DNA of 64,000 nt from positions 3,410 through 67,409 of IMG/VR virus record IMGVR_UViG_3300045988_143165. One strand, written 5' to 3'. Source of the DNA: a virus. A program made the translations under genes and the position numbers. The notes below the pieces were generated by a model that made no database searches, was not told the origin of the DNA, and saw nothing but the letters and a program-made list of their open reading frames with translations. Position 1 is the first letter of the stretch; each line of letters starts with the position of its first letter. This document shows, piece after piece, positions 1 to 58,349 of the stretch.

Positions 1-218
1 ATAAAATAATCAAAGTTGCCACATATTTCGATGTGTCAGTCGATTATTTACTCGGTAGAACAGATATAAAAGGTTCTGCTTCTGAATTGCTTGGAGATGA
101 TGATATTATATCTTTTCAAAGAGCAAGACAAAAAATGTCTCAACAAGATAGAGAACGAATGATGCGAATGCTTAAAGTTGGTTTCGATTACGCCTTTGAG
201 GAGGATAATAACACTTAA
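1..218 (+). CDS. XRE-family helix-turn-helix regulator, C-terminal fragment (5' end lies outside the window)
   Basis: The frame is open from position 3 and translates as ..KIIKVATYFDVSVDYLLGRTD.., which is a typical HTH_3 C-terminus. Its stop overlaps the ATG of the ImmA gene (TAATG). Confidence 0.6.
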   Translation, partial: KIIKVATYFDVSVDYLLGRTDIKGSASELLGDDDIISFQRARQKMSQQDRERMMRMLKVGFDYAFEEDNNT

Positions 219-829
219 TGGTTAGATATATCTATATAAACAATTTGGTGTTGAAAATATATTCTATGTTGCCACAAATCACATTTCCTTTAGATATTCA
301 AGAAGTAATTAAACTCATTCCGAATTGTAGATATATGTCATATCGGAAATTCGCTAAAATAAATAATTGTTCAATAAATGATGTTATCCAAATGTGCGAA
401 AGCAAGTCCGGTTGCACTCATTATGATATTTCACAGGATAGATATTTAATTCTTTGCAATCAGTCAACACAAGGCAATAACAATGTCGGTCGGCAATTAT
501 GGACTTGTAGTCACGAAATAGGGCATATTCTTTGCAAACACCACTCTGCATCTGCTTATTCAAAATTATCGGAGAATAGTTTTATGTGCGCAGAAAATTC
601 TGAATTTGAAAATGAAGCTGATTATTTTGCCGCAACAATATTATCTCCGTTTCCTCTTTATGAATATCTAAATGTTCAATCGCCTTTAGATGTTCAAAAT
701 GTTTTCGGGTTATCAACAGAAGCCTCTCTTTATCGTTATAAAAAATACTTAAAATGGAAACAATATCATCGCAAAACTGCCTGGGAAAATGATATTGTTA
801 AACTTTATAAACAAAAAGGTAGTTATTAA
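218..829 (+). CDS. ImmA/IrrE-family zinc metallopeptidase (anti-repressor protease)
   Basis: HEXXH motif HEIGHILCKH and a downstream EADYFAATILSPFPL segment typical of DUF955/ImmA. It is translationally coupled to the preceding XRE gene. Confidence 0.7.
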   Translation: MVRYIYINNLVLKIYSMLPQITFPLDIQEVIKLIPNCRYMSYRKFAKINNCSINDVIQMCESKSGCTHYDISQDRYLILCNQSTQGNNNVGRQLWTCSHEIGHILCKHHSASAYSKLSENSFMCAENSEFENEADYFAATILSPFPLYEYLNVQSPLDVQNVFGLSTEASLYRYKKYLKWKQYHRKTAWENDIVKLYKQKGSY

Positions 830-854
830 CAATATAATATATTCGTTATATTTT

Positions 855-891
855 ACACCTCATAGGGAACAATCTCTATGAGGTGTTTTTT
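855..891 (+). terminator. Rho-independent terminator
   Basis: Perfect 11-bp inverted repeat acacctcatag/ctatgaggtgt with an 8-nt loop, followed by a T6 run. Confidence 0.5.
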
Positions 892-1326
892 ATGACAAAA
901 CAAGAATATAAACATATACGAAATTTAGCGTGGGATTTACTCATTGATGCAAATATTTCACGGTTGCCAGTTGATATAAATGCTATTGCTACTCTTTATG
1001 ATTTACAACACTTAATTGACAATTCTAAATCTTTATATGATAATACTCTTTCCGTTGCCGAATGTATCTTGAAAATCTTTGGAATGGCGAATCCTGAATT
1101 TCCAAGATACCTTGCTATTAGAATTCTTGCGCCTATGATTATTTTCAAAGAATTAGGTGTTAAATCTGCGGAAGAAATGAGTAGCCTTTCCGGGCTTCCT
1201 ATTGATTTAGCAAATCAGCGATTTAAGCGTTTTGAAATGCTCTTGTCAAGAAGAAATACTTTTCAAACTTCTCGTCTTGAAACAATCGTATTATCACAAT
1301 TCCGTGAATGGATAGATAGCCGTTAA
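892..1326 (+). CDS. hypothetical protein
   Basis: ATG directly after the terminator T-run. The ORF track begins at a GTG inside the hairpin (883). Weak ImmA-N-terminal-like segment LPVDINAIA. Confidence 0.4.
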   Translation: MTKQEYKHIRNLAWDLLIDANISRLPVDINAIATLYDLQHLIDNSKSLYDNTLSVAECILKIFGMANPEFPRYLAIRILAPMIIFKELGVKSAEEMSSLSGLPIDLANQRFKRFEMLLSRRNTFQTSRLETIVLSQFREWIDSR

Positions 1327-1961
1327 TCCTTATTCAAAAGAACCGAGATAGAAGATTCAAGATTCAAAAATGGGCGCACACCGCAGGCACAGTCACAGCC
1401 ATTCTGGTCAAGAATGCCGCTGGAACCGACATAGCAAACGCGACGAGCGTAGTTATTACTCGGAGTGGATGCGGGAGTAATAAGCCACCACCAATCAGGA
1501 TAGATGGATTTCAAACCAAGAATCTTATGATACTTTGCATATTCCATAGCGGTTAAAAGACTTACCTTATCGGTGCAAGTTCCGTAATCATCCAAACCAT
1601 CGAGAGAAGTAAGGTCTCTATCCATAGAGATAATATTGTTTTCTCCGCCGATGATAGCTGCAATCTTCTCGAAATACTCATTATTGAGCATTCTACGAAT
1701 AGGAGATGTATTCCAATTTGAATTATCGCCGAATTTTACTTCTTTATAAGCAAACTCTTTTGAAATAACTCTTGTTCCTTTATCAGTATGTTCCATTACA
1801 ATGAATACTTCATCTCCGAGCTTAAATTCATCTCCTGGTTTTAGTGTTGATAATTCAACTTTATTAGAACAAGTTAATGCTGCAAGTTGCTCTGGATTAA
1901 GGTCAATAGTAACCTTTCCATTTTCAATTTTTATATTTGCACTATCAATGGTAATCTGCAT
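1323..1961 (-). CDS. DUF6273-like protein (paralog A)
   Basis: Carries SPIRRMLNNEYF, TDKVSLLTAMEYAKY and WWWLITPAS...GVRPFLNL motifs. RBS aagggaagaagaaaATG at Met28 of the track ORF. Paralog of 34219..34827. Confidence 0.55.
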   Translation of the reverse strand: MQITIDSANIKIENGKVTIDLNPEQLAALTCSNKVELSTLKPGDEFKLGDEVFIVMEHTDKGTRVISKEFAYKEVKFGDNSNWNTSPIRRMLNNEYFEKIAAIIGGENNIISMDRDLTSLDGLDDYGTCTDKVSLLTAMEYAKYHKILGLKSIYPDWWWLITPASTPSNNYARRVCYVGSSGILDQNGCDCACGVRPFLNLESSISVLLNKD

Positions 1962-2232
1962 TTTCTTCTTCCCTTTTATTTTTAACAATGTACTTGTCCT
2001 TAAATTCATAAATCTCATATCCTTCTTTTGCCCAAAAGTCAAGTTTTTCTTGTGTGCATTCTACTTTGTCTATTCTCTTGACTTGTGTTTCGCTTCGATA
2101 CAAATATTCTCCCATAGTATGAAAAATATCTTTAGTATTCACACCAACGATAAAAAGTTCATAATCATTGGTAATGATAGAATATTTTCTAACATAAAGA
2201 AGATGTGTATAAGGTAACTTTATTTCAGTCAT
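1945..2232 (-). CDS. hypothetical protein
   Basis: ORF with RBS aaaggataaaATG (MTEIKL..) directly after the stop of the methyltransferase. Confidence 0.35.
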   Translation of the reverse strand: MTEIKLPYTHLLYVRKYSIITNDYELFIVGVNTKDIFHTMGEYLYRSETQVKRIDKVECTQEKLDFWAKEGYEIYEFKDKYIVKNKREEENADYH

Positions 2233-2233
2233 T

Positions 2234-2959
2234 TTATCCTTTAATTCGTTCCTGTGCAATATTGTAGTATTGTTGGTCTATTTCTATACCTATGAATTGT
2301 CGGTTAAGCTCTTTACAAGCAATGCCTGTACTACCTATACCCATAAATGGGTCTAATACTATACCGTTTTGTTGAGAAGAATTGTCAATCAATATTTTCA
2401 TCAACTCAACAGGCTTTTCAGTATCGTGTAAATTCTTTCCGTCAATACTTTTTAATTTGATGTTTGGTATAGATAAAATATCGCTCGTTCCACAATGGTT
2501 AATTCTTACGCCACGACCTTTGCGGAAAAATAATATGTATTCAAACTGTGACATATAGAATTGACCCATTATTTTGTTTCCTTTATCCCATATCAAAGAC
2601 TTAATAAAATGGAAACCATAGGGCTTAACGCCATTGTCTTTTTCTTCCTCTGTCGTTAAATCAGTAAAAGTGTTCAACATATGAATAAGATTGATATGAT
2701 TAGTCATTACATAACAATGACTGCCATCTTTTAATATTCTATAAAACTCCGATGCATATTCTGAACAATCAATGTTATTATGCTTAAATACTTGACCTTG
2801 CATATTGATTTTCTTTTGTAACATACCACCTGAATTTCCGGCGTTCCCACGAGAAGTAATTTTATAAGGTGGGTCTGTTACAATTAAATCAATGCTCTCG
2901 TTTGGTATTTTACTTAATTCTGTTAAACACTCTCCACATATAAGATTTGGCAGGGGGTG
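2234..2959 (-). CDS. DNA N6/N4 methyltransferase (beta class). The N-terminal DPPY motif is only reachable through a -1 shift at a C5 tract
   Basis: Motif I DPFMGIGSTG lies near the C-terminus. The catalytic LIVTDPPY motif lies upstream of the first ATG (2824) in the same frame, bounded by a stop at 2960-2962. A TTG start with RBS aaaggaag becomes in-frame if the C5 run (plus-strand G5 at 2954-2958) were C6. Confidence 0.65.
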   Translation of the reverse strand, partial: HPLPNLICGECLTELSKIPNESIDLIVTDPPYKITSRGNAGNSGGMLQKKINMQGQVFKHNNIDCSEYASEFYRILKDGSHCYVMTNHINLIHMLNTFTDLTTEEEKDNGVKPYGFHFIKSLIWDKGNKIMGQFYMSQFEYILFFRKGRGVRINHCGTSDILSIPNIKLKSIDGKNLHDTEKPVELMKILIDNSSQQNGIVLDPFMGIGSTGIACKELNRQFIGIEIDQQYYNIAQERIKG

Positions 2960-2969
2960 TTAATTTTAA

Positions 2970-4169
2970 TCAATATATTGTACTTCCTTTGTTGGTTCTC
3001 TTTATATCTTCTGAAAATTTTGTATTAGATAAATATATATTATCGAAATGTTTTAACAAATCTTGAATTTTACAATTACCTGCAATTTCATTATCCGTAT
3101 AATTCAAATGAGTAATCATAACAGAAGTTTTTGTTCCGCTGATTTTTTCTCTTGCTCTTTGTATATCAGCTTTCACTCTATTGATAAACTCATCATAATC
3201 AAACATTCCATACCTTATTGTTTGCTGGTAATCGTTATAACAGTTTGTAAGGTCAGTTATATCTTTATTTATATCCGACTTATCACATTCTGTTGGTAAT
3301 GTTCCTGCTCCGTGTCTGGTAAAATAAGACCTTGTAATATAACAAATTTCAACATCGCAATCAAAATCATTAACTCTTTGAATGGGTGTATAAGAAGTAG
3401 TATTACTTGCTGTGATGTATGGCAATGCTTTTAGATTATTCTCATCAAGTTCAAGACCTTGCGCACCCTCAAATATAATGGTATTATACTTATTTCGGAT
3501 TCTATCGAAATCACACATAAAAGTTATATATTGCATTTCTCTTAAATCACTAACGAAATGTTCAATTAACCCTTTAGACTTTATCAGCTCTTGATATTCT
3601 TGTGGAATTTCTGTTATTCCGTATTCAAATAATTTTTTAGGTAAATAAACATTTGCTATATTATGTAGATAATCTACAACATCTTTATCGTTCATATGAG
3701 ATAGTTGGTTATAATCTAATGCAAAAACACCATCATCATACCTTTTTTGTGTTTCCCAAATACCATAACCACAAGAACCGTGTCTTTTATTCTCTCTATG
3801 TATTTCAACAATTTGATTGATAAACATATCATACATAGTGCTTACTCTACATTTAGGAGAAATCATACATATAGGTTTGATGCCATATTTTTTAAGCTCA
3901 TTATATTCTTGAATGAAGATTGCAGGATTAACCATAAAGTTTTGGTCAAAGTATGTATGAGCATTATCAAATGTGCCACTTCCAAAATGATGGAAAATAT
4001 GCCTTGTGCCATCTTTAAGTTCGACAGTATGACCTCGTTGACATCCTCCATTAAATAAAACATTTAAGCACTTATTTTTCGCGGATTGAGAGAAAAAATG
4101 TGTTGCCAATCCTTTTCCTTCATCTCCATAATTACTACCTATTACTACTTTGACCTTAACTTTACTCAT
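2970..4169 (-). CDS. adenylosuccinate synthetase family protein (PurA-like; PurZ candidate)
   Basis: P-loop GDEGKGL and GGCQRGHT, FEGAQG, TASNTTS, TRHGAG motifs align with E. coli PurA along the whole length. Confidence 0.8.
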   Translation of the reverse strand: MSKVKVKVVIGSNYGDEGKGLATHFFSQSAKNKCLNVLFNGGCQRGHTVELKDGTRHIFHHFGSGTFDNAHTYFDQNFMVNPAIFIQEYNELKKYGIKPICMISPKCRVSTMYDMFINQIVEIHRENKRHGSCGYGIWETQKRYDDGVFALDYNQLSHMNDKDVVDYLHNIANVYLPKKLFEYGITEIPQEYQELIKSKGLIEHFVSDLREMQYITFMCDFDRIRNKYNTIIFEGAQGLELDENNLKALPYITASNTTSYTPIQRVNDFDCDVEICYITRSYFTRHGAGTLPTECDKSDINKDITDLTNCYNDYQQTIRYGMFDYDEFINRVKADIQRAREKISGTKTSVMITHLNYTDNEIAGNCKIQDLLKHFDNIYLSNTKFSEDIKRTNKGSTIY

Positions 4170-4175
4170 TATTTA

Positions 4176-5033
4176 TCACCAAGAAATTTCAGTATTTGTA
4201 TTTGCAACTTCCTCATCTTTTGCATTGGTTATAATATTAACAATAGTGCTTGCAATATTATTCAATCCAACAGTAAGGAAATGTTTGTTATCAAGATACT
4301 TGCTATAAGTATTGTTAATACCATCTTTATGCCAAGAATAACTTGTAGCAGTATCATCAATAGCCAAGTGGTAAATATCAAATTTTTCACTTGCCGCCTT
4401 ATAAAGTGTTTCTGTTTCAACATCAGTCTGCAATGAATCTCCGGTTACGGCACTTAATCTATTTGCAGGAAGATAAGGATTTAATGATTCATCTCCCATT
4501 GTAATGATAATGCCTTTCTTACCACGCTTCCAGCAATCGAGGTCGGTGTGTTTTAATCCAAAATACCACGCAGCAGTATATGACTCAAATGAATTACCGC
4601 CACCACCTCTTTCAAAATAAATTTTATCAAGCTGCTCGGCAATACGAACATCTGATTCAAACTGTGAAGCCTGAATAGGTGCATTATCATAAGCCAAATC
4701 GCCAATACCCATAACAAGGAATTCCACGTCAGTTACTTCCTCATAGAGTCTTGTCATAACCTCATTGAGTTTCTTTGCGACTTCTGCGGCAGCACTACCC
4801 ATACTACCCGTAACATCAAGAGCAAGAATAACTGGGATTGTATTAGGATGTTCGTCTGAATCACAACACTGACGAACTACATTATAAGGGTCTAATTCAG
4901 GTTGAATACATCTTGACTTAAATAAATCCTGTGCAGAATAACTCTTATCTAAATTACCGTCATCAAGAACAGTTCTACCAACAGATTTTGAGTAAATTGT
5001 ATAATCACTTGTAGTCCAAATTCCGCAACCCAT
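4176..5033 (-). CDS. von Willebrand factor A domain protein
   Basis: MIDAS-like VILALDVTGSMGS segment and a beta-rich vWA-sized body. Confidence 0.55.
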   Translation of the reverse strand: MGCGIWTTSDYTIYSKSVGRTVLDDGNLDKSYSAQDLFKSRCIQPELDPYNVVRQCCDSDEHPNTIPVILALDVTGSMGSAAAEVAKKLNEVMTRLYEEVTDVEFLVMGIGDLAYDNAPIQASQFESDVRIAEQLDKIYFERGGGGNSFESYTAAWYFGLKHTDLDCWKRGKKGIIITMGDESLNPYLPANRLSAVTGDSLQTDVETETLYKAASEKFDIYHLAIDDTATSYSWHKDGINNTYSKYLDNKHFLTVGLNNIASTIVNIITNAKDEEVANTNTEISW

Positions 5034-5629
5034 TATTCTGCCTCCTTATCTTCTGTTACTTCTTCATCATTGTTATCGGAATCGAACATACCATCAAATA
5101 TATCGGTAAACCTATTTCCGCCACCAAGCAACATAAATGGAAGCATTGAAGCCATACCATTATCACCCATTGTTCCGCCATTGCTGCCCTTCATCATTTC
5201 AGACATCATCATATAGGACATCATTTTGCCCATACCTTTTTTACCCTTCATCAAGTCGTTTCCGAACATTGAAACAATCTTGCCGTAAAAATATGTATTA
5301 CCCATAAAAACGTGGCGTTCTGGAAGAATGTCCTTAACAGTTGAATCCTCATAATCAATGACCTTAATTGTATCATTATTTACTGCAATAACACACTTTG
5401 GCTTGCCTGATACAAGAATAATGTCGCCAGCTTCAACTTTATTAGTAGGAATTACAAAGAAAAATTCCTCACCAAGATTGAAAACGAAGTTATTGCAATT
5501 TGTAAGTCTATTTTTCTTGATATTATAAGTCTTATAACCATCACTTGTCTTTACGGCAACCTCACCGTTCATTGAAAGTCTGCACATTCCGTTGGCTACT
5601 TTGCCAAACATACCATTGAACATATTCAT
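5033..5629 (-). CDS. hypothetical Gly/Met-rich protein
   Basis: ORF with a Gly/Met-rich low-complexity C-terminus. Confidence 0.4.
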   Translation of the reverse strand: MNMFNGMFGKVANGMCRLSMNGEVAVKTSDGYKTYNIKKNRLTNCNNFVFNLGEEFFFVIPTNKVEAGDIILVSGKPKCVIAVNNDTIKVIDYEDSTVKDILPERHVFMGNTYFYGKIVSMFGNDLMKGKKGMGKMMSYMMMSEMMKGSNGGTMGDNGMASMLPFMLLGGGNRFTDIFDGMFDSDNNDEEVTEDKEAE

Positions 5630-5646
5630 TTCTTAATCTCCTTTAA

Positions 5647-6417
5647 TTATTTCTTTTTATCTTCAAGCCACTTATTATCAACGACATAAAAACCTACTAC
5701 CAATCCACCTATAAGTAATATCCAAAAAATCCAAAAAACTATTATCTGCCATTCGGACTCAAGGTTTTCGATTGTATCTTCAATATTCTTATCATAATAA
5801 AAGTGAACATTAGAAATTGTATTATCTTTAAGTACAGCGTATAGTGTTCCTTTACATTCGGCAGGAGCAGCATAATACACATATCTTATATCTCCTGATG
5901 AATGCCACCAATCACCATCTACATATATCGTTTTTATTTCTCTTTCACTTGGTAAATGAATTGTATCATAAGGAAACTCAACACCAATAAAATCAATCTT
6001 TGTAGAGCTTTTTGATTCTTGGCTAACATAATCCCAAGTATAATATTCTTCTGTTTCCGTATATGTTTCGGTTTTGCCTTTTGAGTTTGTTCTCGTTTTT
6101 GTTACCGTGCTTGTGTGTCTTGTATATTTCTCTTTGACTTTCTTTATATAGGAGAAGTCTCCTTCAATTTCATCATAAGAAACTGTATCAACAGCTTTAA
6201 GTTCACCATATACGAAAGCATTACCTATGTTTGTTCTCATACCGTGTTGAAATACATCTTTGTTATTATCTATCTGCAATGCCGTGTTGTATTCCTGATA
6301 ATCATTCATTAAAGAATTACTTATTCCGGATGAAATCATAAAACCAAACACAAGCATTACAGCAATAATGATAATACTAAAAAGGACTTCGCGCTTGGTT
6401 ACTAACCTCTTATCCAT
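5647..6417 (-). CDS. membrane protein (DUF2207-like partner of LemA?)
   Basis: N-terminal and C-terminal transmembrane segments, and adjacency to LemA. Confidence 0.4.
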   Translation of the reverse strand: MDKRLVTKREVLFSIIIIAVMLVFGFMISSGISNSLMNDYQEYNTALQIDNNKDVFQHGMRTNIGNAFVYGELKAVDTVSYDEIEGDFSYIKKVKEKYTRHTSTVTKTRTNSKGKTETYTETEEYYTWDYVSQESKSSTKIDFIGVEFPYDTIHLPSEREIKTIYVDGDWWHSSGDIRYVYYAAPAECKGTLYAVLKDNTISNVHFYYDKNIEDTIENLESEWQIIVFWIFWILLIGGLVVGFYVVDNKWLEDKKK

Positions 6418-8001: not shown

Positions 8002-8418
8002 TTATACAAATTGTAAGTATATTGGTTTTGGATTGAGCATTGCATTTCCATCTCCGAGAACATATTGGTCGATTTTCGGCTTAATAACTTCTTGAATATA
8101 TGTTTCTCTTATTCGAGAATCCATAAAAATAACTTGTGAACAAATTTCAGAAATCATATTCTCTTTGGTTATTAGATTGATAATGCTACCATTGAAAAAC
8201 TCAATCTTAATTTGCTCACCTTCAGCAATAGATTTTATCTCACAGTCATAAGTCACCTTCTTATAGTATTCAATGATTTCGTCAAGCATTGTTTTAGCAG
8301 AAACCATATCCTCAATATAAAAAGTAATTATGTAGTTCGATAAGGTAATGCACCTATCGAGGAATTTATAACCTCGAATTTTCGATTGTTCAAATATTGA
8401 CATTATCTTGACTCCCAC
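8002..8418 (-). CDS. hypothetical protein
   Basis: ORF in the operon. No motif recognised. Confidence 0.35.
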   Translation of the reverse strand: MGVKIMSIFEQSKIRGYKFLDRCITLSNYIITFYIEDMVSAKTMLDEIIEYYKKVTYDCEIKSIAEGEQIKIEFFNGSIINLITKENMISEICSQVIFMDSRIRETYIQEVIKPKIDQYVLGDGNAMLNPKPIYLQFV

Positions 8419-9440
8419 GGAAATTCAGAATGACCAAAGTGACCAAACTTTGCAGTATCATTAAACTTAAATGTTCCATCTATCAAATGCAAATCTTCGA
8501 TAATCCTTTTTGGTGTGCATTCATCATAGAAACAGTCCGGTATATCAATTACTTCCTTGTTTGTCTTTGCATAAATTCCAAGAGGCTTATCCATACCTAT
8601 TGCATAAGAAATCTGAATTTCGCACCAGTTGACATCGGGTAATGTATCAAGACATTCGATTGCAAGCTGTCTTGCCTTATACGCTGCCGAACGGTCAACT
8701 TTTGTTGGGTCTTTACCAGAGAATGCACCACCTCCGACATTTGCAAAAGATTGATAATTGTCAACTACAATTTTTCTGCCGGTTAGACCTGCATCTCCAT
8801 CAAAACCACCGATTAAGAATTTACCCGTCGGATTGATGTGAAACTCTCTGATTGCAATTCCATAATTTGAACAAAGTGTCTCACAGTAGTCAGTAAGAAT
8901 TTTATCTGTCTCTGCTCGATTTGTTTCTTTGTTCTGATATGAGATAATAAAATCCTTTATATACTCCAATTTGTTATTTTCATCATAGAACCCTGTTATC
9001 TGTGCCTTGCCATCAGGAAGAAATCTGTCATCAATTTTGACAAGTCTATCATAGAATGCCGATAAATCTTGAAGGATAGCCATTGCCGTAGGAATGTAAT
9101 CCACTGTATCTCTGCACGCATACCCGAACATCATTCCTTGGTCTCCAGCACCTCCAGCATCAACGCCCTGCGCAATATCAGGTGACTGTTTACCGATGTT
9201 ATCAATAACTTCATATTTATTTGGGTCATATCCAACATCACGAAGAGCTTCTTTAACAATGTTTGTTACATTGACTAATGCTCTTGAAGTTACTTCACCT
9301 GTTACGAATATTTTTCCTTTGCCGCCGACAGTTTCAATGCCGCATCTGCTATGTTTATCCTGCTTCAAAAAAGCATCAAGAAGTGCATCACTTATTTGGT
9401 CGCAAACTTTGTCAGGGATGTCCTCTAAAAACAATTTCAT
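8403..9440 (-). CDS. metK: S-adenosylmethionine synthetase
   Basis: GAGDQGMMFGYA and GGGAFSGKDPTKVDRSAAY signatures. The N-terminus MKLFLEDIPDKVCDQISD aligns to the E. coli MetK start, so ATG at 9440 is preferred over the track's TTG at 9467. Confidence 0.85.
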   Translation of the reverse strand: MKLFLEDIPDKVCDQISDALLDAFLKQDKHSRCGIETVGGKGKIFVTGEVTSRALVNVTNIVKEALRDVGYDPNKYEVIDNIGKQSPDIAQGVDAGGAGDQGMMFGYACRDTVDYIPTAMAILQDLSAFYDRLVKIDDRFLPDGKAQITGFYDENNKLEYIKDFIISYQNKETNRAETDKILTDYCETLCSNYGIAIREFHINPTGKFLIGGFDGDAGLTGRKIVVDNYQSFANVGGGAFSGKDPTKVDRSAAYKARQLAIECLDTLPDVNWCEIQISYAIGMDKPLGIYAKTNKEVIDIPDCFYDECTPKRIIEDLHLIDGTFKFNDTAKFGHFGHSEFPWESR

Positions 9441-9615
9441 TGCTGTAATAGAAAGACATATAATCAACTCCTTTCATTTTCAACGAAGCGCCAAGTATAT
9501 CCACCTGCGCTTTACGCTCATATTTATTATTACAAACATCGCTTATTCGTTTATAATTTGTTCCTGTTATTAGTTAAACACCTAACAGATTTTCTTCGAT
9601 AAGTTGATTATTCAT

Positions 9616-12319: not shown

Positions 12320-14269
12320 TTAGAAATTTCCCATTATATATTCAAGTTCAGAAATAATCTTTGTTCCATACTTCTCAGCAGCTTTATTTTTAGAGCTGCC
12401 AGAAGTCTTATCATTTGTAATTAAATATTGTGTTTTAGAAGTCACGGAAGAAACTACCGTTCCACCTTTTGCTTCAATATCATACACAAGAGCATTACGG
12501 TTGTCAAATTCAACTAATTTTCCTGTAATACAAAATGTTTTGTCTTTGTATCTTTGGCTTAAATCGGATTTTTGTGGTTTTTTAATGTGAAGAATATTAA
12601 CAAGAGGTTGAATATCTTCATAATTATCTACAACATATGAATTGATATTATCACTTGTTGCCTGTCCGATTTCCTGCAATACGCTCCAATCAAATCCTGA
12701 CATTGCAAAATTGATAAACTCTTGAAATGTATTTTCTACTCCTGTTTCTTCACAATATTCAGCTATCGTTCTTGCTGCTGATTTACCAATTCCCGGAATA
12801 CCAATAGCAATAATAATATTGATTAACTGACATTTTTTACTAACTTCAATAGCATTGATAATCTTATCAATGCTTGATTCACCAAAACCTTTTGCTTTTG
12901 CAATTTCATTACGATAATCTTTAAGGTGATAAAGGCTCTCAAAACTTGTAATATAACCCATATCCATAAGGGAGCGTAACCTTTCTTCTGATATGCCTAC
13001 AATATTCATTGCTTCCCTTGTAGCAAAGTTTGAAATTTTATCGTGAAGAATTGCTTTACAATGTCTGTTTGTGCAGTAAAGCATTTCTCTACCGTTATCA
13101 TTCTTTATCGTCACAGGATTTCCACAAGACGGGCATACTGAAGGTATTTGGTATGTATTACTTCTTGTAAGATTTTGTGTGATTTTCGGGATAATCTGAT
13201 TTGCTTTAACAACGGTTACAATGTCACCAATACCAAGTTCAAGCTCTTTGATAATACTTACATTGTTAAGAGTAGCACGAGATACAGTAGTTCCATCAAT
13301 CTCGACAGGCTCAAAAATTGCAACAGGATTTACAAGACCAGTTCTGCTCGTTGACCACTCAATGTTAAGCAAAACCGTTTCGTTTTCCTCTTGATAGAAT
13401 TTATATGCAAGAGAATGTCTTGGGTGATGTCCTGTTCTACCAAGAGAATTTCCATACTCAATATCATCAAACATTCCTACTATTCCATCAATCGGAATCT
13501 GTTTGGTTTCGCATTCATCTTTAATCCATTCAATAGTATTAAAACTATTGGTATAATAAGGTACTACATCAAAACCAAGATTTGATAGAAAATCAAAACC
13601 TTCAGAATGATACTGAATACCAACATTTTCTGCTTCGTGAAGCCTCCAAGCTATAAACTTGATATTCCGTTTTGCAGCAATTTCACTATTCAACTGACGT
13701 ACTGAACCACTTACAAGATTTCGTGGATTTTTATATTTTGTATTTTCTCTTGCTTTAATACGTTCAAATTCATCATAAGTAATAATACACTCGCCATCAA
13801 TTTCGAGTTTACCCTTAAACGGAATTTCTGTTGGAAGATTAGAAAATACTTTTGCATTGTGGGTAATATCTTCTCCGGTTTCACCGTCACCACGACTTTC
13901 GGCTCTTATGAGTTTGCCATTGTCATATGTCAAGGAGCAAGTAAGCCCATCAAGTTTTGCCATAATAAGAAAATCTTTGTTACCGAAATACTTAATAAAC
14001 TCATCAATATCCGTTGTCTTACCAAGAGATAATAAAGGATGGCTATGTTTGACTTTCTGTAACTGACTCAAGCTCATATAACCAACAGATTGTGTCGGTG
14101 AATTTGAGAATATACATCCTGTCTCTCGTTCTAAAACAATTAGTTTATCAAAGAGTTCATCATACTCTCTGTCAGAAATGATACTATTATTATTGTTATA
14201 GTATTCATCTCTGTACTTATTTAACTTTTTGACGAGGGATTTAACTTCCTCTACTCTATTTTCATTCAT
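12320..14269 (-). CDS. ligA: NAD+-dependent DNA ligase
   Basis: Adenylation motif KLDG, an OB/zinc/HhH architecture and a C-terminal BRCT-like segment. 649 aa, typical LigA length. Confidence 0.9.
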   Translation of the reverse strand: MNENRVEEVKSLVKKLNKYRDEYYNNNNSIISDREYDELFDKLIVLERETGCIFSNSPTQSVGYMSLSQLQKVKHSHPLLSLGKTTDIDEFIKYFGNKDFLIMAKLDGLTCSLTYDNGKLIRAESRGDGETGEDITHNAKVFSNLPTEIPFKGKLEIDGECIITYDEFERIKARENTKYKNPRNLVSGSVRQLNSEIAAKRNIKFIAWRLHEAENVGIQYHSEGFDFLSNLGFDVVPYYTNSFNTIEWIKDECETKQIPIDGIVGMFDDIEYGNSLGRTGHHPRHSLAYKFYQEENETVLLNIEWSTSRTGLVNPVAIFEPVEIDGTTVSRATLNNVSIIKELELGIGDIVTVVKANQIIPKITQNLTRSNTYQIPSVCPSCGNPVTIKNDNGREMLYCTNRHCKAILHDKISNFATREAMNIVGISEERLRSLMDMGYITSFESLYHLKDYRNEIAKAKGFGESSIDKIINAIEVSKKCQLINIIIAIGIPGIGKSAARTIAEYCEETGVENTFQEFINFAMSGFDWSVLQEIGQATSDNINSYVVDNYEDIQPLVNILHIKKPQKSDLSQRYKDKTFCITGKLVEFDNRNALVYDIEAKGGTVVSSVTSKTQYLITNDKTSGSSKNKAAEKYGTKIISELEYIMGNF

Positions 14270-34218: not shown

Positions 34219-34827
34219 TCAAGATACTAAGATAGAAGAATTCAAGATACAAAACGGGCGAACACCATGGCAACAGCCACAGCCGCACCAACCGAGAATG
34301 CGGCTGGAATTGACACAGCAAACGCCAAGAGCATAGTAATTATTAAGTGTCGTTACACCTGTTGCAGTCCAGAACCACTTATCAACAGCAGGAAGAAATT
34401 CACGATAACGGCGATAGTTCTCCGTAGTAATGATTGAAACATTGTCTTTGCAACTTGCGCCCTTGTTAGAACCATCATCGCACACGAGTTTTACCCTATG
34501 AGAAATGATGTTATCTTTACCTACAACCCTTGCAAGTTCCTTATAAAATTCTCCATTGCAGAATTCACGAACATAACTCTTTGCATAATCACCGGTTTCG
34601 CCAAAGTCCATTTCCTTAACAATGCTTTTTGTGATTACTGCCGTAGTTTCTTCTGCGTGACCAAGAACAATGTATTCACGGTTGCCGAGTTTTACAGTCT
34701 CTCCGGGTTTAACATCACCGAGCTTTTTGCCTGTCTTTTCAAAAAGAAGAATAGCAAGTGAGCCATCATCATTCTGATTGACTGTAACATTTACATTGGG
34801 AATGTTGTTTGTAATATTAACTTTCAT
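34219..34827 (-). CDS. DUF6273-like protein (paralog B)
   Basis: KPGETVKLGNREYIVLGH, FCNGEFYKELA, KWFWTATG...GCGCCHGVRPFCILNSSI motifs. Its 3' end shares nucleotide identity with paralog A. Confidence 0.55.
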   Translation of the reverse strand: MKVNITNNIPNVNVTVNQNDDGSLAILLFEKTGKKLGDVKPGETVKLGNREYIVLGHAEETTAVITKSIVKEMDFGETGDYAKSYVREFCNGEFYKELARVVGKDNIISHRVKLVCDDGSNKGASCKDNVSIITTENYRRYREFLPAVDKWFWTATGVTTLNNYYALGVCCVNSSRILGWCGCGCCHGVRPFCILNSSILVS

Positions 34828-34992: not shown

Positions 34993-35760
34993 CTAATTTG
35001 AATGATATTCAAAGCACGGCATTAACTGTAACTTGAACATATTTTTTTCGTGCATTTCGTTAATTTTTGCCTTTACTTTTTCGTCATCACATATTCCAGT
35101 TCTTATATACTTATCAAGAACTGCATAGGTGAAGCCAAAACTATCTTCATCTGTCTTTCCACAAAGTCCATCTGTCGGAGTTTTGTGTGCAAGCTCATTA
35201 GGTAAGCCACAATCCTCTGCTATGGCAATTACTTCTGTTTTTGTAAGCATTGCAAGAGGACTAAAATCTCCTGCTGCATCACCGTATCGTGTAGAATAAC
35301 CGATATAATCTTCCGAAAGATTGCAGGTATTCATTACTCTGCCATTCATTGATTGAGATACAGCATATAATGTAGCCATTCTCAAACGAGCAGGAAGATT
35401 GATTTTAGTCTGTTCTGAAATATCAATAGGATAATAACCGTCAAAATTTGGGTCATAGTAATCATCAATATTACAGATTATTCCATTGTATGCTTGTTCA
35501 ATATTAACCTCTGTATATTTGATACCAAGATGTGAAACCAACTTAATAGCAGAATCAATATCTTTCTGCACGCCATTTGGCATAAGCACACCAAATACCC
35601 TGTCTTTCCCAAGTGCTTCAACGCACAAAGCAGCAACCGTGCTTGAGTCTATGCCACCTGAAATTCCGATAATAGCATTACAGTCTTTTCCATTTTTTTT
35701 AAATATATCTCTTATCCATTCAACAACATCATTTTTGACTTTTATTACATCAAATGTCAT
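34993..35760 (-). CDS. nadE: NH3-dependent NAD+ synthetase
   Basis: PP-loop GISGGIDSS. About 255 aa, typical NadE size. Distal part of the NAD+ salvage gene set. Confidence 0.8.
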   Translation of the reverse strand: MTFDVIKVKNDVVEWIRDIFKKNGKDCNAIIGISGGIDSSTVAALCVEALGKDRVFGVLMPNGVQKDIDSAIKLVSHLGIKYTEVNIEQAYNGIICNIDDYYDPNFDGYYPIDISEQTKINLPARLRMATLYAVSQSMNGRVMNTCNLSEDYIGYSTRYGDAAGDFSPLAMLTKTEVIAIAEDCGLPNELAHKTPTDGLCGKTDEDSFGFTYAVLDKYIRTGICDDEKVKAKINEMHEKNMFKLQLMPCFEYHSN

Positions 35761-37220
35761 TAGAACTTACCTCCGTGCAATGTATTTCTTACTTCCGAAA
35801 GAGAGTATTCTTTTATCATCTTACCATCACTGAATATAGGCTGGAGCATATTATTCTCGTTATACGCCTCTGCCCAGGTATGACCATCTGTAAATGTGAG
35901 GTCTGAATTTACAATACAACAACCTTTTTGTGATTTCTTAAATCCACCGTCTTTTGGATTCTTAAAAATCGGCACAGATTTTCCGTTAATCTCACAATAT
36001 GTTGCTTTAATGCAAGAACTAAAGGTATCACGGGTAAAAGGCTTTAGAATACCATCTTCCTCAATGCACTGGAATGAGAAAGAACCAACTCCAAGCGCAA
36101 CGTTTGAGCAAGCAAAACCATTCTGCATAAGGATTTCATAGATTTGCTCACATCTCTGTACCGTAATACTATCACCATAAATAGCCTTAACGTGTGGGTC
36201 AAGTACTTTATATCCCTTGCTGTTTACTGTTCCGCCAAAAATATCCCACAGTTTGAATACTGTCCTTGTAACAACCTCAACACAATCACCGGAATCTCCA
36301 CGCATAAGCATACAACCATTGTGTGACATAATTTCAGGTTTTAATTCAGGAAGAACATTATCAATTATGTTCCAGTAATCATATGAATCAAGCACAGCGG
36401 AAAACGAATTATTGGGATAAATTTCCGCTAAAAGTCTGCGAAGAAGCGTAATTTCATCACCATCGACTGCATAATTACTACACATAACTGAATGCTCTGT
36501 GCTGGGTGAACCAAATGCCACAGGTTCTTTTGTGCAATCGCAATTATACATTGCCTCAAGATAGGGAACTGTCGGAACGGTTGCAGTATTCAAAAATGAC
36601 ATACACCAACCTGCACCAGCTTTAATTGCTGATTCTGTGCATTCCTCGCCTCTGAAATCAAATGCTCCGAGTGCTTTTGACTTTGGAACATCATCATCAC
36701 AAGTCAGGTCGTAATATTTATTTACAATCTGACGATATGTATATCCGACTGTTGCAGCCAACATAGGATGCCAGCTTTCAGCAGAAATAAGGCTTTCAAG
36801 AGCTTGTGGAAGCCAAGCGAAATCAGAATGTGTATTTGTAATTCCAAACATCGGAACGTGCATCGGTACAAGTGTTCCTTCAGGAAGTGCCACAATCTTA
36901 ATCGGAAGATAGCCGAGTTTGTGAAGTTCTTCAATCTTCTTAATACCGTAAACATTCTCTCCAAGAGAAGCATCCATAATTCTCTTATAATTTGCGATAA
37001 CCTCGTCAAAAGGTTTATTGAAAAATTCTTCGTTGAAATAATCAATAAGGTATGTTTTTATAAAACCCTGCAACCCAAACATAACAACCTTATCCCATCT
37101 CTTAACTCTCGTCATTCTCGGAGTAAAATAAGATACTGATTTTGTGATTCCTTTGGGCAACATTTCTGCGTGTACTGCCTTATAAAAATCAATAAGCAAC
37201 ATAGGATTTATCTTTCTCAT
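35760..37220 (-). CDS. nadV: nicotinamide phosphoribosyltransferase (NAMPT/NadV family)
   Basis: Aligns with human NAMPT along its length (IDFYKAVH/TDSYKVTH, LPIKIVALPEG, VLDSYDYWN/VSDSYDIYN, LMRGDSGD/IIRPDSGN, NSKGYKVL). RBS taaGGAGaattgaaATG at MRKINP. Confidence 0.85.
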   Translation of the reverse strand: MRKINPMLLIDFYKAVHAEMLPKGITKSVSYFTPRMTRVKRWDKVVMFGLQGFIKTYLIDYFNEEFFNKPFDEVIANYKRIMDASLGENVYGIKKIEELHKLGYLPIKIVALPEGTLVPMHVPMFGITNTHSDFAWLPQALESLISAESWHPMLAATVGYTYRQIVNKYYDLTCDDDVPKSKALGAFDFRGEECTESAIKAGAGWCMSFLNTATVPTVPYLEAMYNCDCTKEPVAFGSPSTEHSVMCSNYAVDGDEITLLRRLLAEIYPNNSFSAVLDSYDYWNIIDNVLPELKPEIMSHNGCMLMRGDSGDCVEVVTRTVFKLWDIFGGTVNSKGYKVLDPHVKAIYGDSITVQRCEQIYEILMQNGFACSNVALGVGSFSFQCIEEDGILKPFTRDTFSSCIKATYCEINGKSVPIFKNPKDGGFKKSQKGCCIVNSDLTFTDGHTWAEAYNENNMLQPIFSDGKMIKEYSLSEVRNTLHGGKF

Positions 37221-37231
37221 TTCAATTCTCC

Positions 37232-38368
37232 TTATACTGCATAATGAATGTTCTTGGTAGGACATCTTGAAAAACTCAAATATTCAACCTCTGTTGACCT
37301 TGCACAATCAACAACCTCTTTACAATCATCATCCTGTGAATATTTGATTTGAATATTTTCAGGACTAATACAATAGAGAAGTTTTTCAACATTATATTCT
37401 GCATCCGATACATTGAAATCAACTCTTACAAAATCATTACCTTTCTTATCTTCAAGCCATAAATAATCTTCATAATCTCCGAACATATCCAAACCGTAGT
37501 TTTTGTGCTGTGCTGTGAGTCCATTCTTATAATGAAGAACAATATTATATCTTAAATAATTATTAAGATTTACAATGTTCAAATCTTTAATAGCTTCCTT
37601 AAATGAAATTCCTGTGTTAATTTCAAATGCGATAGCTCTTAAACAGTCATAATTCAAATTTACTTTTCTTGAAAAAGCGATAATAGAATCAATCTCACCG
37701 TAATACTGTTCATCAAGTTTATCAATAAGATATTCCCGAACTTCCGTTGGTGTCGGATAATCAAATCTGAAATGATAATGAAATCTTCCCGGTCTGTTTA
37801 TTAGATAATTGTTTAACTTACCGAGGTCATTACAAGTAATAACAAACAATTTTTTGCCACCAGAAACACCATCAAATAAGCTCAAAAGATTTGCCTGTGG
37901 AGAAGCCTCTCCATCTCCTGCCTTTACTTCTCCAAATGTCTTATCGAACTCATCAAACAAAACCATAACCTCTTGGTCAATGCTTTCAATATATGATGCA
38001 ATGCCAGGAATATACCTATCTACAACAATAAGTGGAATATCTTTCTTCTGTGCTTCAATAGATAATAGCCTTGCAAATAAAGATTTGCCAATACCCTTAT
38101 CTCCACTTAAAATAACGCCAAGATTTCTGTTAAATTTGTCAAATGAGTTCAAAACCTTATTTACTTTTTCGATATGTACTCCGTAAACTTTATCTTCTTT
38201 TACTTCAATATCGACATACTTTTCAAGATAAAATCCCTTAAATTGACTAAATCTCACAACATAACTTTGTGTTGGAAATTTTTCATATGTTTTTAATGTA
38301 TCATCAAAAACCTCATATGAATTTCCAGAACTAATAACCTTCACTTTATTTTTCCCCCTAATCAACAT
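37232..38368 (-). CDS. AAA+ ATPase
   Basis: Walker A GDKGIGKS, Walker B VLFDEFD, sensor ITCN, RPGRF arginine-finger region. Embedded between nadV and prs. Confidence 0.6.
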   Translation of the reverse strand: MLIRGKNKVKVISSGNSYEVFDDTLKTYEKFPTQSYVVRFSQFKGFYLEKYVDIEVKEDKVYGVHIEKVNKVLNSFDKFNRNLGVILSGDKGIGKSLFARLLSIEAQKKDIPLIVVDRYIPGIASYIESIDQEVMVLFDEFDKTFGEVKAGDGEASPQANLLSLFDGVSGGKKLFVITCNDLGKLNNYLINRPGRFHYHFRFDYPTPTEVREYLIDKLDEQYYGEIDSIIAFSRKVNLNYDCLRAIAFEINTGISFKEAIKDLNIVNLNNYLRYNIVLHYKNGLTAQHKNYGLDMFGDYEDYLWLEDKKGNDFVRVDFNVSDAEYNVEKLLYCISPENIQIKYSQDDDCKEVVDCARSTEVEYLSFSRCPTKNIHYAV

Positions 38369-55286: not shown

Positions 55287-58200
55287 TTAATCGTTTGTGA
55301 TTTTTTGATGACCCCATAAGATTTTAATATTGCCTTTTTCGTCCTTTCCCTTTGTCATTAACACCTTTAGCATCATTTCGTTAATTCCAAACTTACTATA
55401 TAGGTCATCATCTTCGACTTTTTCATCTTTCATAAAAAGGTTCAATTTTTCTTTACACAGAATCATTTTTAACAGATTTCCTTCTATACTGTTTTCATAA
55501 GTTACAAAATATATTTCCTTCCATTCCGTAGAAGTGAATCTGATAAATCGAAAATAAAACTGACTCATACTTGCATTATTCCAATGCAATTCTGGAATAA
55601 TACACTTATTTACAAAGTCAATATTCATACTGCACGATAATGATTGCTGTGTGCAAATTAAAATACCATTTCTTGTTTTTTTCAGTTCATTACAAATTGA
55701 TATTCTTTTCTTTAATGTCGTGTTATTTCCAGTAATAACAAACAATGGTCTATTCGGATATAATTTCTTAATTGCTGTGGCATAAGAATAAACATTGTCA
55801 ACGTGGCGAACACCTATTACAATTCTTTCATTATTCCACTTTTCAATCATCTCAAATACTTTTTTATATTTACTCGACAATTCAGTTGAAGAATATTCTT
55901 TGAATGTGTGAGGACAAGCACATATTTTAAGCAAAAGAGTTAATTGATTTAAGATTCTCAACATAGCATCTTTTCTGCTGTTTCCTGTTGTCTTAAATAG
56001 ATATTGCATTTTATAAAATTCCTCTATTGCTATTGAATATAGTGCTTCTTCTTCCGGTGTGAATTTACAAGTGACATTTTTGATTTCGTAAATTTTCTTG
56101 CCTGTGACTTCTTCAAATTTCCTTGTGATTATCGTTTTGTCAAGCATTTTTTTTAATGCTTCTGAATTATATATATCTTGTGTCTTTTTAACAACTCCAA
56201 ATACAGTGATTTTATCTGGCAGAAAACATTTGCTGAATAATGAATATCCTTTCTTATATGCTGGGAATGGATTATTATATTGTTCATTAAAATCGGAAAT
56301 AATTTCGCCTTTGGTTTCAGAATCCTTATTTTTATCCACAACATAAACAGTTTCACATTCACACAACATATTAACGCTATTATTGTAAAGCAATTCAAGT
56401 TGAGGGTAAATTTCACAAATATTGTTTCGTGTGCTTGTTCCGGTCATACATACTTTGTATTTAATTTTTCTAAAACAACTTAATACTGCTTTTGTTCTCT
56501 TGCTATTTTGATTTGATATGCTATCACTTTCATCCATTACAAGCATAACTTTTTGAGATTGCATTTTAACAAATTTCTTAATATGTTTTTGTAAAGTATT
56601 GAGTATATCAAGAGTAATTAAAACAATTTGTCCTTTTTTAATCTTCTGAATATCCGAATAACTATTGATTCTTATATAGTCATAATGGTAAGCCTCAAGG
56701 CAATCTTGCCAGTTGTTATTTATCGCGATAGCAGTAGAGACTACAAAAGCATTTCTGATATTGTTGTGTTGGAATCTATAATCCATTTGAACTATGCCGG
56801 CAAAAGTTTTTCCGCTGCCCTGTTCCCACTGCAAGAAAACATATCTTTTCTGCAAAAGTTTATTTATATCTTCTTTTTGCTTTTCCGTCAACTTATAAGT
56901 TTCATTTTTGTTATAATCGTGGATAGAAAAATTATCAAGAAATTTCATTATATCAGAATCTTGTTCCATATCCTTAAATGATACTTCATTACTTTGAAAA
57001 TCTTTAATTTTCTTATCAATAAGTTTTTCATACTTTTTGTTTTCAAATTGATATGAACATTGACCTGAAACAATATCGTTAATAGATACAAATTTTCCAA
57101 AATCTCCATATTGTTTATTCAATAAGATTTTCATTTTACGGCTATATGGTTTTAACTTTAAGCCATAATCAGTTTTTACTAATTCAATCTTATCAATTTC
57201 AACTTTATGTTCAGATTTGATAACTTTTCTTAAATAGGCAAGTACCTTATTAGGCGTGATTTTCCTCTTTTCCCATTCTTCATACTTCATTCCTTCTGGC
57301 ATTTTCTGTGTTTGGTATTTGTAAAGATACTCGCTGCATTTTGCATATTTATCCTGTAAAGCAGGATTTCTCTTAATATCAAACATCATTTTTTTAACTT
57401 TATATTCAAATTGTTTTTGTTCTTGAGTCTTGCCATCGTGTAAATTTTCAAAAAACAACTGATTTTTCAACTTATTTCTCAAAGTGATTGCAGGCTTTAT
57501 ATAATTTTCATAAATGAAATTTGAAGATTCTATATTAAGACAATCAATTACAATGTTTTTCGTGCTAAATTTTACATCTAAAATATGTTCACTTTTCTTT
57601 TGGAAAAACATAATTTTAGTAGAAAAATTAGTAACTCCGAGATTTTTGAATGTATCTGAAGGAATGTCAAACTGACATAATAGATTCCATTCTTTTGAAA
57701 CTTCTTCTATCATTCCTCTATCGGAAAAATCATCCGCCAGAAAACTTGATGGAACTACCAGAGCCATTAAACCACCCGGTTTAATATTCTCTGATGCTTT
57801 AATTGTGTAGTATAGTTGTGAAACATAAGTCGTATCTCCAATTTGCCACTTCAAATTAAATGGCGGATTTCCGACAATAACATCTGCTCTTATTTCAGGA
57901 TTATATACTCTTATATCTGAACACCGGATATTTGCTTTTGGGTATAAATATTTTGCAACCTTATAAGATTTCATATCAATTTCACAACCAAAGAAATTAC
58001 TTTCCTGGGGAACAGAATTTGCAAAAGCTCCGTGACCACAAGTTAAATCCATAATTATATCGAATTTGTCCGGTTTCAAACATTGTATTACAAAATCGGT
58101 AATGGCATACGGTGTAAAAAACTGTCCTTGTTCAAATTCTTTTTTGGCTTCTGAATAATCATAATAATTTTCATAGTTTGAAAATTTTTCTCCACTTAAT

Positions 58201-58349
58201 CCACCGTTTCCGGTGTATGAGCTTGCTATGTCAGTTGCAGTTATTCCGTTTTCTTCCGCTATTCCGTTGTCAATCAAATAAAGAATTTTGTTGTTAATCT
58301 CTGCCCGTTTATCTTGTGGAATTATCAAATTTTCAACAATATATTTCAT
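55287..58349 (-). CDS. N6-adenine DNA methyltransferase fused to an SF2 helicase (DarB-like anti-restriction candidate)
   Basis: N-terminal GQFFTPYAI, DLTCGHGAF and VIVGNPPF (gamma-class N6-MTase). C-terminal helicase motifs WEQGSGKT (I), LVMDESDS (II) and MTGTSTRNN (III). 1020 aa. Confidence 0.75.
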   Translation of the reverse strand: MKYIVENLIIPQDKRAEINNKILYLIDNGIAEENGITATDIASSYTGNGGLSGEKFSNYENYYDYSEAKKEFEQGQFFTPYAITDFVIQCLKPDKFDIIMDLTCGHGAFANSVPQESNFFGCEIDMKSYKVAKYLYPKANIRCSDIRVYNPEIRADVIVGNPPFNLKWQIGDTTYVSQLYYTIKASENIKPGGLMALVVPSSFLADDFSDRGMIEEVSKEWNLLCQFDIPSDTFKNLGVTNFSTKIMFFQKKSEHILDVKFSTKNIVIDCLNIESSNFIYENYIKPAITLRNKLKNQLFFENLHDGKTQEQKQFEYKVKKMMFDIKRNPALQDKYAKCSEYLYKYQTQKMPEGMKYEEWEKRKITPNKVLAYLRKVIKSEHKVEIDKIELVKTDYGLKLKPYSRKMKILLNKQYGDFGKFVSINDIVSGQCSYQFENKKYEKLIDKKIKDFQSNEVSFKDMEQDSDIMKFLDNFSIHDYNKNETYKLTEKQKEDINKLLQKRYVFLQWEQGSGKTFAGIVQMDYRFQHNNIRNAFVVSTAIAINNNWQDCLEAYHYDYIRINSYSDIQKIKKGQIVLITLDILNTLQKHIKKFVKMQSQKVMLVMDESDSISNQNSKRTKAVLSCFRKIKYKVCMTGTSTRNNICEIYPQLELLYNNSVNMLCECETVYVVDKNKDSETKGEIISDFNEQYNNPFPAYKKGYSLFSKCFLPDKITVFGVVKKTQDIYNSEALKKMLDKTIITRKFEEVTGKKIYEIKNVTCKFTPEEEALYSIAIEEFYKMQYLFKTTGNSRKDAMLRILNQLTLLLKICACPHTFKEYSSTELSSKYKKVFEMIEKWNNERIVIGVRHVDNVYSYATAIKKLYPNRPLFVITGNNTTLKKRISICNELKKTRNGILICTQQSLSCSMNIDFVNKCIIPELHWNNASMSQFYFRFIRFTSTEWKEIYFVTYENSIEGNLLKMILCKEKLNLFMKDEKVEDDDLYSKFGINEMMLKVLMTKGKDEKGNIKILWGHQKITND

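Follow-up and report, generated by a model that had tools for sequence, protein, structure and literature searches.

Anatomy of the locus and its two reading frames

The window considered here is the whole stretch of DNA that was analysed, namely 64,000 nt of the IMG/VR record IMGVR_UViG_3300045988_143165 (record positions 3,410 to 67,409). On its minus strand it carries a DNA methyltransferase gene preceded by a gene of the purZ family. The features needed for the discussion are, in the coordinates of the window and in the direction of transcription:

2970..4169, minus strand: purZ-family (adenylosuccinate-synthetase-like) gene, matching PF00709 and PHROG phrog_1211 '2-aminooxy adenylosuccinate synthetase' (E = 6.9e-55)
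2983..2990, minus strand: ribosome-binding site (RBS) AAAGGAAG, followed by a 9-nt spacer and the TTG start
2971..2973, minus strand: TTG start of the methyltransferase, overlapping the TGA stop (2970-2972) of the upstream purZ-like gene (TTGA)
2960..2962, minus strand: TAA closing the methyltransferase frame on its upstream side
2953..2957, minus strand: poly-C tract, C5 in the mRNA sense (G5 on the plus strand), in codons 6-8
2234..2959, minus strand: methyltransferase reading frame past the tract, intact to the TAA stop at 2236-2234
2923..2925, minus strand: TAA closing the 16-codon TTG-frame peptide MIKINTPCQILYVESV in the C5 state
2864..2875, minus strand: catalytic motif IV (DPPY), translated solely when the tract is in frame
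2822..2824, minus strand: internal ATG (Met 2824), the start chosen by gene callers for a truncated 196-aa product (P0025)
2333..2347, minus strand: AdoMet-binding motif I (FMGIG), C-terminal to DPPY

With five C in the tract, the TTG start is out of frame with the methyltransferase body (OFF state), and the frame that it opens (TTG ATT AAA ATT AAC ACC CCC TGC) ends at the TAA 2925-2923 after 16 codons; with six C, it is in frame (ON state). The extra C fuses the TTG frame and the methyltransferase frame into a 246-aa protein, with ...NTPLPNLICGEC... as the peptide spanning the tract. The methyltransferase frame reads HPLPNLICGECLTELSKIPNESIDLIVTDPPY just past the TAA 2962-2960 (from this upstream TAA onward it is also given as HPLPNLICGECLTELSKIPNESIDLIVTDPPYK...), and no ATG, GTG or TTG start is found in it between that TAA and Met 2824. 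Upstream of the internal ATG there is only a GGTGG, which is poorly spaced. The purine-rich RBS at the TTG is kept, with similar spacing to the start codon, in relatives (L013, L115, L119, L091 and L121), and the TTG itself is the start used in relatives that are in frame (L011, L114, L125 and P0001), yielding the protein N-terminus MIKINTPLPNLICGEC.... The overlap of this TTG with the stop codon of the purZ-like gene suggests that translation of the methyltransferase may be coupled to that of its upstream neighbour.

This layout had been recognized in the initial annotation of the DNA, which described the RBS and TTG start in a frame offset from that of DPPY, the TAA that precedes the latter with no start codon, and the joining of the two frames by a run of six C; all three points are borne out, and the observation was exact except that the plus-strand G5 had been placed at 2954-2958, one base too high.

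The encoded enzyme, its neighbours and the element

The reconstructed protein matches Pfam PF01555 (N6_N4_Mtase) with a score of 119 bits, to be compared with the cut-off of 26.7 (E = 3.6e-34), and the position of DPPY, N-terminal to FMGIG (FxGxG), gives the motif order of the beta class. In a PDB search the closest solved structures were those of the adenine methyltransferases CcrM (2.5e-20) and DpnA. Thus, the gene at 2973..2234 (minus strand) is predicted to encode a beta-class DNA N6-adenine methyltransferase, adenine specificity being suggested by the DPPY motif and the closest structures only. The 196-aa product starting at Met 2824 is without DPPY and, judging from the enzyme class, should be catalytically dead. 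Gene callers returned products of 196, 216 and 239 aa for this gene, in which the catalytic motif is missing or barely kept, so that automated annotation, by splitting or truncating the methyltransferase, misreports it. Inspection of the neighbourhood revealed no apparent restriction-enzyme gene near the methyltransferase.

When 50,697 phage records were searched at both the DNA and the protein level, the nearest one was Fusobacterium phage phiKSUM, with 60% amino acid identity; the tract region was unmatched in it, and nothing closer was present in the set. A different N-terminus was observed in one protein (P0013), the methyltransferase body of which is 94% identical to that of the window: it is tract-free (MIQLINNDCLNELSLIK...) and resembles the N-termini of L018 and L019, which indicates that the N-terminal module, with or without the tract, is apparently exchanged by recombination.

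As for the upstream gene, phrog_1211 corresponds to the PurZ family of 2-aminoadenine/Z-genome phages. A PDB search with the purZ-like protein retrieved PurA entries in general and did not separate PurZ from PurA, the PurZ label deriving from the PHROG name only. The adjacency of methyltransferase and purZ seems specific to the lineage of the window, and the upstream genes differ in other tract-bearing loci. A general link of the methyltransferase family with purZ was considered and dropped, with no purZ annotated near the homologs of Ruegeria phage V16 and Acinetobacter phage Brutus.

Downstream of the methyltransferase, a 95-aa ORF and then a gene for a DUF6273 protein (1326-1961, minus strand) are found. 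The latter is hypervariable: across 11 genomes with 99.4-99.9% identity, 17 of its codons vary nonsynonymously and one synonymously. The variable codons (especially at 1361-1442) cluster in the last approximately 30 codons and are of the NNC/NNT type (e.g. GAC/TGC/TAC/GGC), a pattern that resembles the variable region of a diversity-generating retroelement. A 76%-identical copy forms the C-terminus of a paralogous 202-aa gene (34219-34827). This paralogous copy was all that the search for a template repeat returned, and no reverse transcriptase was found in the 10 ORFs scanned; a diversity-generating retroelement as the source of the variation was set aside.

The element also encodes a SAM synthetase, a NAD-dependent DNA ligase, a NAMPT, a PRPP-synthetase-like protein, a Thg1-like protein and an integrase, along with a 1020-aa helicase with an N-terminal methyltransferase/DarB-like region (a helicase-methyltransferase fusion); segments of the window with the metabolic and helicase genes are 8403-9467, 12320-14269, 35760-37265 and 55287-58349. 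Long ORFs lie on one strand in 57 of the 60 cases in the window. Contigs that carry the locus (L002, L004 and L005) span 390-498 kb, two of them being approximately 390 kb, and some locus-bearing contigs are in IMG/VR. The large contigs and the gene content point to either a very large phage or a prophage within a bacterial contig. Among genome-resolved sequences, the nearest relatives are almost all MAGs of gut Clostridia, Lachnospiraceae and Ruminococcus (species-representative genomes), which suggests, together with the above, a large phage-like element of gut Clostridia. Assignment of a host from these genomes was attempted and abandoned, as they gave no exact host match for the lineage of the window. 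A separate observation concerns another G/C 5-mer of the window (38354-38358, G5 in the mRNA sense), which falls approximately 10 nt into an ATPase-like ORF (37232..38368), at the junction of this ORF with its upstream gene.

Length variation of the tract among relatives

A search of 5.8 billion protein clusters revealed both states of the gene among relatives at 95-99% identity. The full-length forms (P0001-P0005) are of 246-247 aa; the first of them has exactly the N-terminus of the reconstructed protein, and the other four differ from it by a few residues around the tract. The truncated form (P0025, 196 aa) is a cluster of 149 member sequences. The DNA behind it was retrieved for 10 independent contigs of different runs and projects; 9 of them share with the window both C5 and its exact flanks, while the tenth (L001) has C7. 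By taking into account all sources, C5 with identical flanks is present in 11 assemblies besides the window (L002-L010, L012 from IMG/VR, and L118 from a metagenome pattern scan), which were drawn from different samples and studies (Logan, ENA, IMG/VR and a metagenome collection). The loci of this clade are 99.4-99.9% identical over up to 5.8 kb, with almost no other indels with respect to the window, and the C7 of L001 is the sole exception to C5. The same L001 contains a 1-nt deletion in a T-run (window-equivalent 3743) that splits the purZ-like gene, and this second homopolymer anomaly indicates that the L001 assembly may be noisy or error-prone. The C5 allele is, therefore, real and widespread in the 99.4-99.9% clade. 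Its near-invariance there suggests that switching of this allele may be slow, or that the allele is effectively locked OFF.

No site varies more in indels than the tract among 18 near-identical loci with approximately 5.8 kb in common. In these 5.8 kb just one other homopolymer varies recurrently, namely a T6 run at 886-891 (in the plus-strand segment 880-894) that separates an SD-like GAGGTG from the start codon (ATG at 892) of a 144-aa ORF; this run is found as T5, T6 or T7 among near-identical genomes (L004, L011 and L125), a variation that would alter the SD-start spacing of this ORF.

In the sister group (approx. 97-99% identity), three loci (L011, L114 and L125) have C6 and are in frame, and a fourth (L113) has the interrupted tract CCTTCCCCC (CCTTC5), also in frame. 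C5, C6, C7 and CCTTC5 thus coexist as alleles of the same lineage, and the wider clade ranges from C4 to C12. Homologs down to approximately 67% amino acid identity have poly-C at the same place, a few codons past the RBS and start, which are themselves conserved. At least seven sublineages include both states, ON and OFF, and the groups in which these can be set side by side are the following:

L013/L124 group: out of frame with TC5; in frame in L117 (TCTC7)
L119, of the gene group of L013/L124: out of frame with C10; in frame in L117 (TCTC7), and C9 would be in frame too
L016 group: out of frame in L120/L122 (C5); in frame in L016 (C6)
L014 group: out of frame in L014 (C7); in frame in L123 (C6)
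L115 group: out of frame in L116 (C6); in frame in L115 (C8)
L015 group: out of frame in L015 (C10); in frame in P0023 and P0024 (PPP and PPPP N-termini, implying C9 and C12)
L017 group: out of frame in L017 (C9); in frame in P0052 and relatives (N-terminus implying C8)

Four further loci (L051, L054, L091 and L106) are out of frame. The correction that would restore the frame is of +1 nt in some lineages (C5) and of −1 nt in others (C7, C9 and C10). On a neighbour-joining tree of the coding sequence of 33 loci (total length, 1.74 substitutions per site), Fitch parsimony requires at least 13 changes of tract length and at least seven ON/OFF changes, and no frameshift is found outside the tract in the remaining approximately 700 nt of the gene across the same 33 loci. 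Beyond these, a Lachnospiraceae MAG (L107) is in frame at the tract and has an internal deletion and a frameshift in the methyltransferase body. When only sets that were not ascertained by protein state are considered (the IMG/VR protein scan, the GTDB genomes and the metagenome DNA pattern), 6 loci are in frame, 14 are out of frame and 1, namely L107, is broken elsewhere. These figures, with approximately one third in frame as for a random frame, give no sign of selection for the ON state in the sampled populations.

The position of the tract is itself conserved, despite differing flanking codons (TPL, TPP, YPPP, VPPP, ITPW and TPPE), and tract-free homologs have ordinary ATG starts. Of the Pro codons in the window, CCC is the least used (8.7%), G/C runs of at least 5 are depleted (6 observed versus 19 +/- 4 in shuffles), and the tract is the only such run in window positions 1-5824. 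The rarity of CCC, the depletion of G/C runs and the maintenance of the run at the same position make the tract look selected, more than expected by chance.

Contingency switching, gene decay and recoding as candidate explanations

The anatomy of the locus, the length polymorphism of the tract at the DNA level, the recurrent ON/OFF transitions, the purifying selection on the part translated only in the ON state (see below) and the conservation of the tract are the observations from which an interpretation has to start. In our judgement, the poly-C tract is probably a slipped-strand contingency locus that controls an orphan adenine methyltransferase, with the window holding the C5 OFF allele. 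With this assumption, gain or loss of C during DNA replication, through slipped-strand mispairing, would bring the catalytic body in or out of frame with the RBS and the TTG. C6 (or C9, C12 and so on, depending on the lineage) would give the full 246-aa enzyme, while C5 or C7 would give a short peptide and no DPPY-containing product. As expected for a contingency locus, the repeat lies inside an ORF where the change of one unit toggles expression, as seen from the frames of C5 and C6, and its length is polymorphic among close relatives that include both ON and OFF alleles. A homopolymer threshold of at least 6 bp has been used for contingency loci (bioRxiv 10.1101/2025.10.21.683753). The 5-nt tract of the window is under the usual threshold for homopolymer hypermutability (6-7 nt), and relatives carry C6-C12; the short tract would probably make the OFF allele of the window a slow-switching one. 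We infer that switching may be fast enough to matter within populations. The stronger proposal is that of a selected and deeply conserved poly-C contingency locus, by which phase variation of the orphan methyltransferase would extend to an entire clade of large gut phage-like elements, the gene being, in the lineage of the window, translationally coupled to one of the purZ family; we regard its chances as even. Among the four alternatives listed in the initial annotation, the phase-variable switch is the one that best fits the DNA-level length polymorphism, which is repeated, occurs in both directions and pertains to a conserved gene clade; of the remaining ones, the sequencing error is refuted and the programmed frameshift is unsupported, as discussed below.

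The main competing explanation is that of a lineage-specific pseudogene, in which C5 would mark a dead gene and the poly-C would mutate passively, as a hotspot not selected for switching. It would account for the essential fixation of C5 in the clade of the window, for the short length of its tract and for an in-frame share in the unbiased samples that equals the neutral expectation, and one relative, L107, is indeed broken outside the tract. However, the ORF is complete, with 223-238 codons, in all the out-of-frame alleles, and the few variable codons of the C5 clade (two synonymous and one nonsynonymous) include no stop. Selection on the gene was evaluated from raw pN/pS values, the Jukes-Cantor-corrected dN/dS having been set aside for the saturation of synonymous sites in many pairs. 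For the 40 codons that run from the tract to the internal Met, and are translatable only in frame, pN/pS is 0.26, with synonymous sites near saturation, and the value is identical for OFF/OFF pairs and for the remaining pairs; for the rest of the gene it is 0.16. The ON-only segment is thus under purifying selection, equally so in OFF/OFF comparisons, and the methyltransferase gene, as read from its coding sequence, is not an old pseudogene. The frameshifts are also concentrated in the tract, with at least 13 events against a single one elsewhere, and the tract has been kept in place across deep divergence, against the rarity of CCC and the depletion of G/C runs. Taken together, these data make gene decay an unlikely explanation, albeit one that retains some weight.

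A second possibility is that the full-length enzyme is made from the C5 allele itself, at a low level of expression, either because tRNA-Pro slips by −1 on CCC_C in the ribosome or because RNA polymerase slips on the C run. The sequence does allow the perfect re-pairing of tRNA-Pro one base back on CCCCC, as pointed out in the initial annotation, which stressed a −1 shift; purifying selection acts on the N-terminal segment in OFF lineages too, and methyltransferases can act at low abundance. However, recoding is made unnecessary by in-frame alleles (C6, C8 and C9) of the same lineages, and no single shift would serve all the OFF alleles: C5 would need +1 nt, whereas C7, C9 and C10 would need −1 nt. 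An X XXY YYZ heptamer is absent, the zero frame being AAC ACC CCC TGC, in which only the P-site Pro codon re-pairs. In the 100 nt downstream no significant stimulatory RNA structure was found (MFE, −12.8 kcal/mol; z = −1.37; 21/200 shuffles as good). The out-of-frame arrangement is not conserved among the homologs, in which in-frame alleles are common and others call for the opposite shift. The likeness to programmed −1 frameshifting in dnaX and in the G/GT tail-assembly chaperone of phages is limited to a pair of overlapping frames and a homopolymeric run on which slipping back one base could join them; unlike those cases, no slippery heptamer, stimulatory structure or conserved out-of-frame layout is present here, and relatives of the locus are often in frame or shifted in the opposite sense. 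Transcriptional slippage typically needs a long homopolymer, of approximately nine residues or more, and a 5-nt run is far too short for efficiency, so that on the general knowledge of its dependence on run length slippage on the tract of the window is unlikely. Recoding as a whole is, in our opinion, a quite improbable source of the enzyme.

An error in homopolymer sequencing or assembly, the true sequence being C6, would not be surprising on some platforms, to which homopolymers are difficult, and the C7 of L001, with its split purZ-like gene, may be such a case, but for the C5 of the window it is refuted, with virtually no credence left, because the same allele and flanks recur in 11 other contigs assembled independently in different projects, and those contigs are almost devoid of other homopolymer indels with respect to the window.

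The reading of the tract as a slipped-strand contingency locus finds precedents in several systems. Homopolymer contingency loci have been described in phages, with A-runs in T2 agt and T4 rIIA, and the DNA-modification gene agt of T2 toggles to evade modification-dependent defence (bioRxiv 10.1101/2025.10.21.683753). The same work cites polyG tracts in receptor-binding genes of Fletchervirus, a group of Campylobacter phages (Sorensen et al. 2021, cited in 10.1101/2025.10.21.683753), and a polyG tract in the methylase gene of Bordetella phage BPP-1 (cited in 10.1101/2025.10.21.683753). As in T2 agt, T4 rIIA and Fletchervirus, the tract of the window is a homopolymer within a phage ORF, where a change of +/−1 reversibly shifts the frame of the gene, and as in T2 agt, which trades modification-dependent defence against classical restriction, the toggled gene is that of a DNA-modification enzyme. 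Unlike those loci, the tract is a poly-C, of five residues in the window and of C4-C12 in the relatives, set right after the start of an adenine methyltransferase gene; it belongs to an uncultured gut phage-like element, and its switching is deduced from the comparison between genomes alone.

Repeat-mediated phase variation of bacterial DNA methyltransferases (phasevarions) is also well established (review PMC13076061). The likeness to phasevarions based on Type III mod genes with tetranucleotide or homopolymer repeats consists of a simple repeat in a methyltransferase ORF that is switched ON and OFF by slipped-strand mispairing; however, an orphan beta-class PF01555 enzyme on a phage-like element takes here the place of a chromosomal Type III mod, and the tracts are shorter. 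Closer in context are the prophage-borne orphan m6A methyltransferase genes of the M.Btr192IV/Hia5-like type, with a CAAGx12 repeat 63 bp inside the gene (PMC4996451), and the BPP-1 methylase gene, as they share with the locus of the window a phage or prophage methyltransferase with a frame-shifting simple repeat near the 5' end. The type of repeat and the enzyme family differ, and the significance of the repeat was left open in those cases, whereas population data, with repeated ON/OFF changes and purifying selection, are available here. Thus, repeat-switched methyltransferases and phage homopolymer loci are already known, and the new aspect is the repeated toggling on a population scale with purifying selection.

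By analogy with these systems, the benefit of switching would be bet-hedging of DNA methylation, in that methylation would guard against classical restriction, at a cost or with vulnerability to methylation-dependent defences. The proposal that contingency loci are a general strategy of phages is recent and is based on laboratory coliphages and Campylobacter phages; the present locus adds evidence from natural populations, namely from many gut metagenomes in which an uncultured gut element exhibits repeated toggling along with purifying selection. If the reading as a selected locus is true, the elements would be able to choose, heritably and reversibly, whether their DNA is methylated, which would be a natural case of phage bet-hedging on DNA modification at the population scale. 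If switching were confirmed, the locus would provide a tractable system for the trade-off that phages face between protection from restriction and the costs of methylation.
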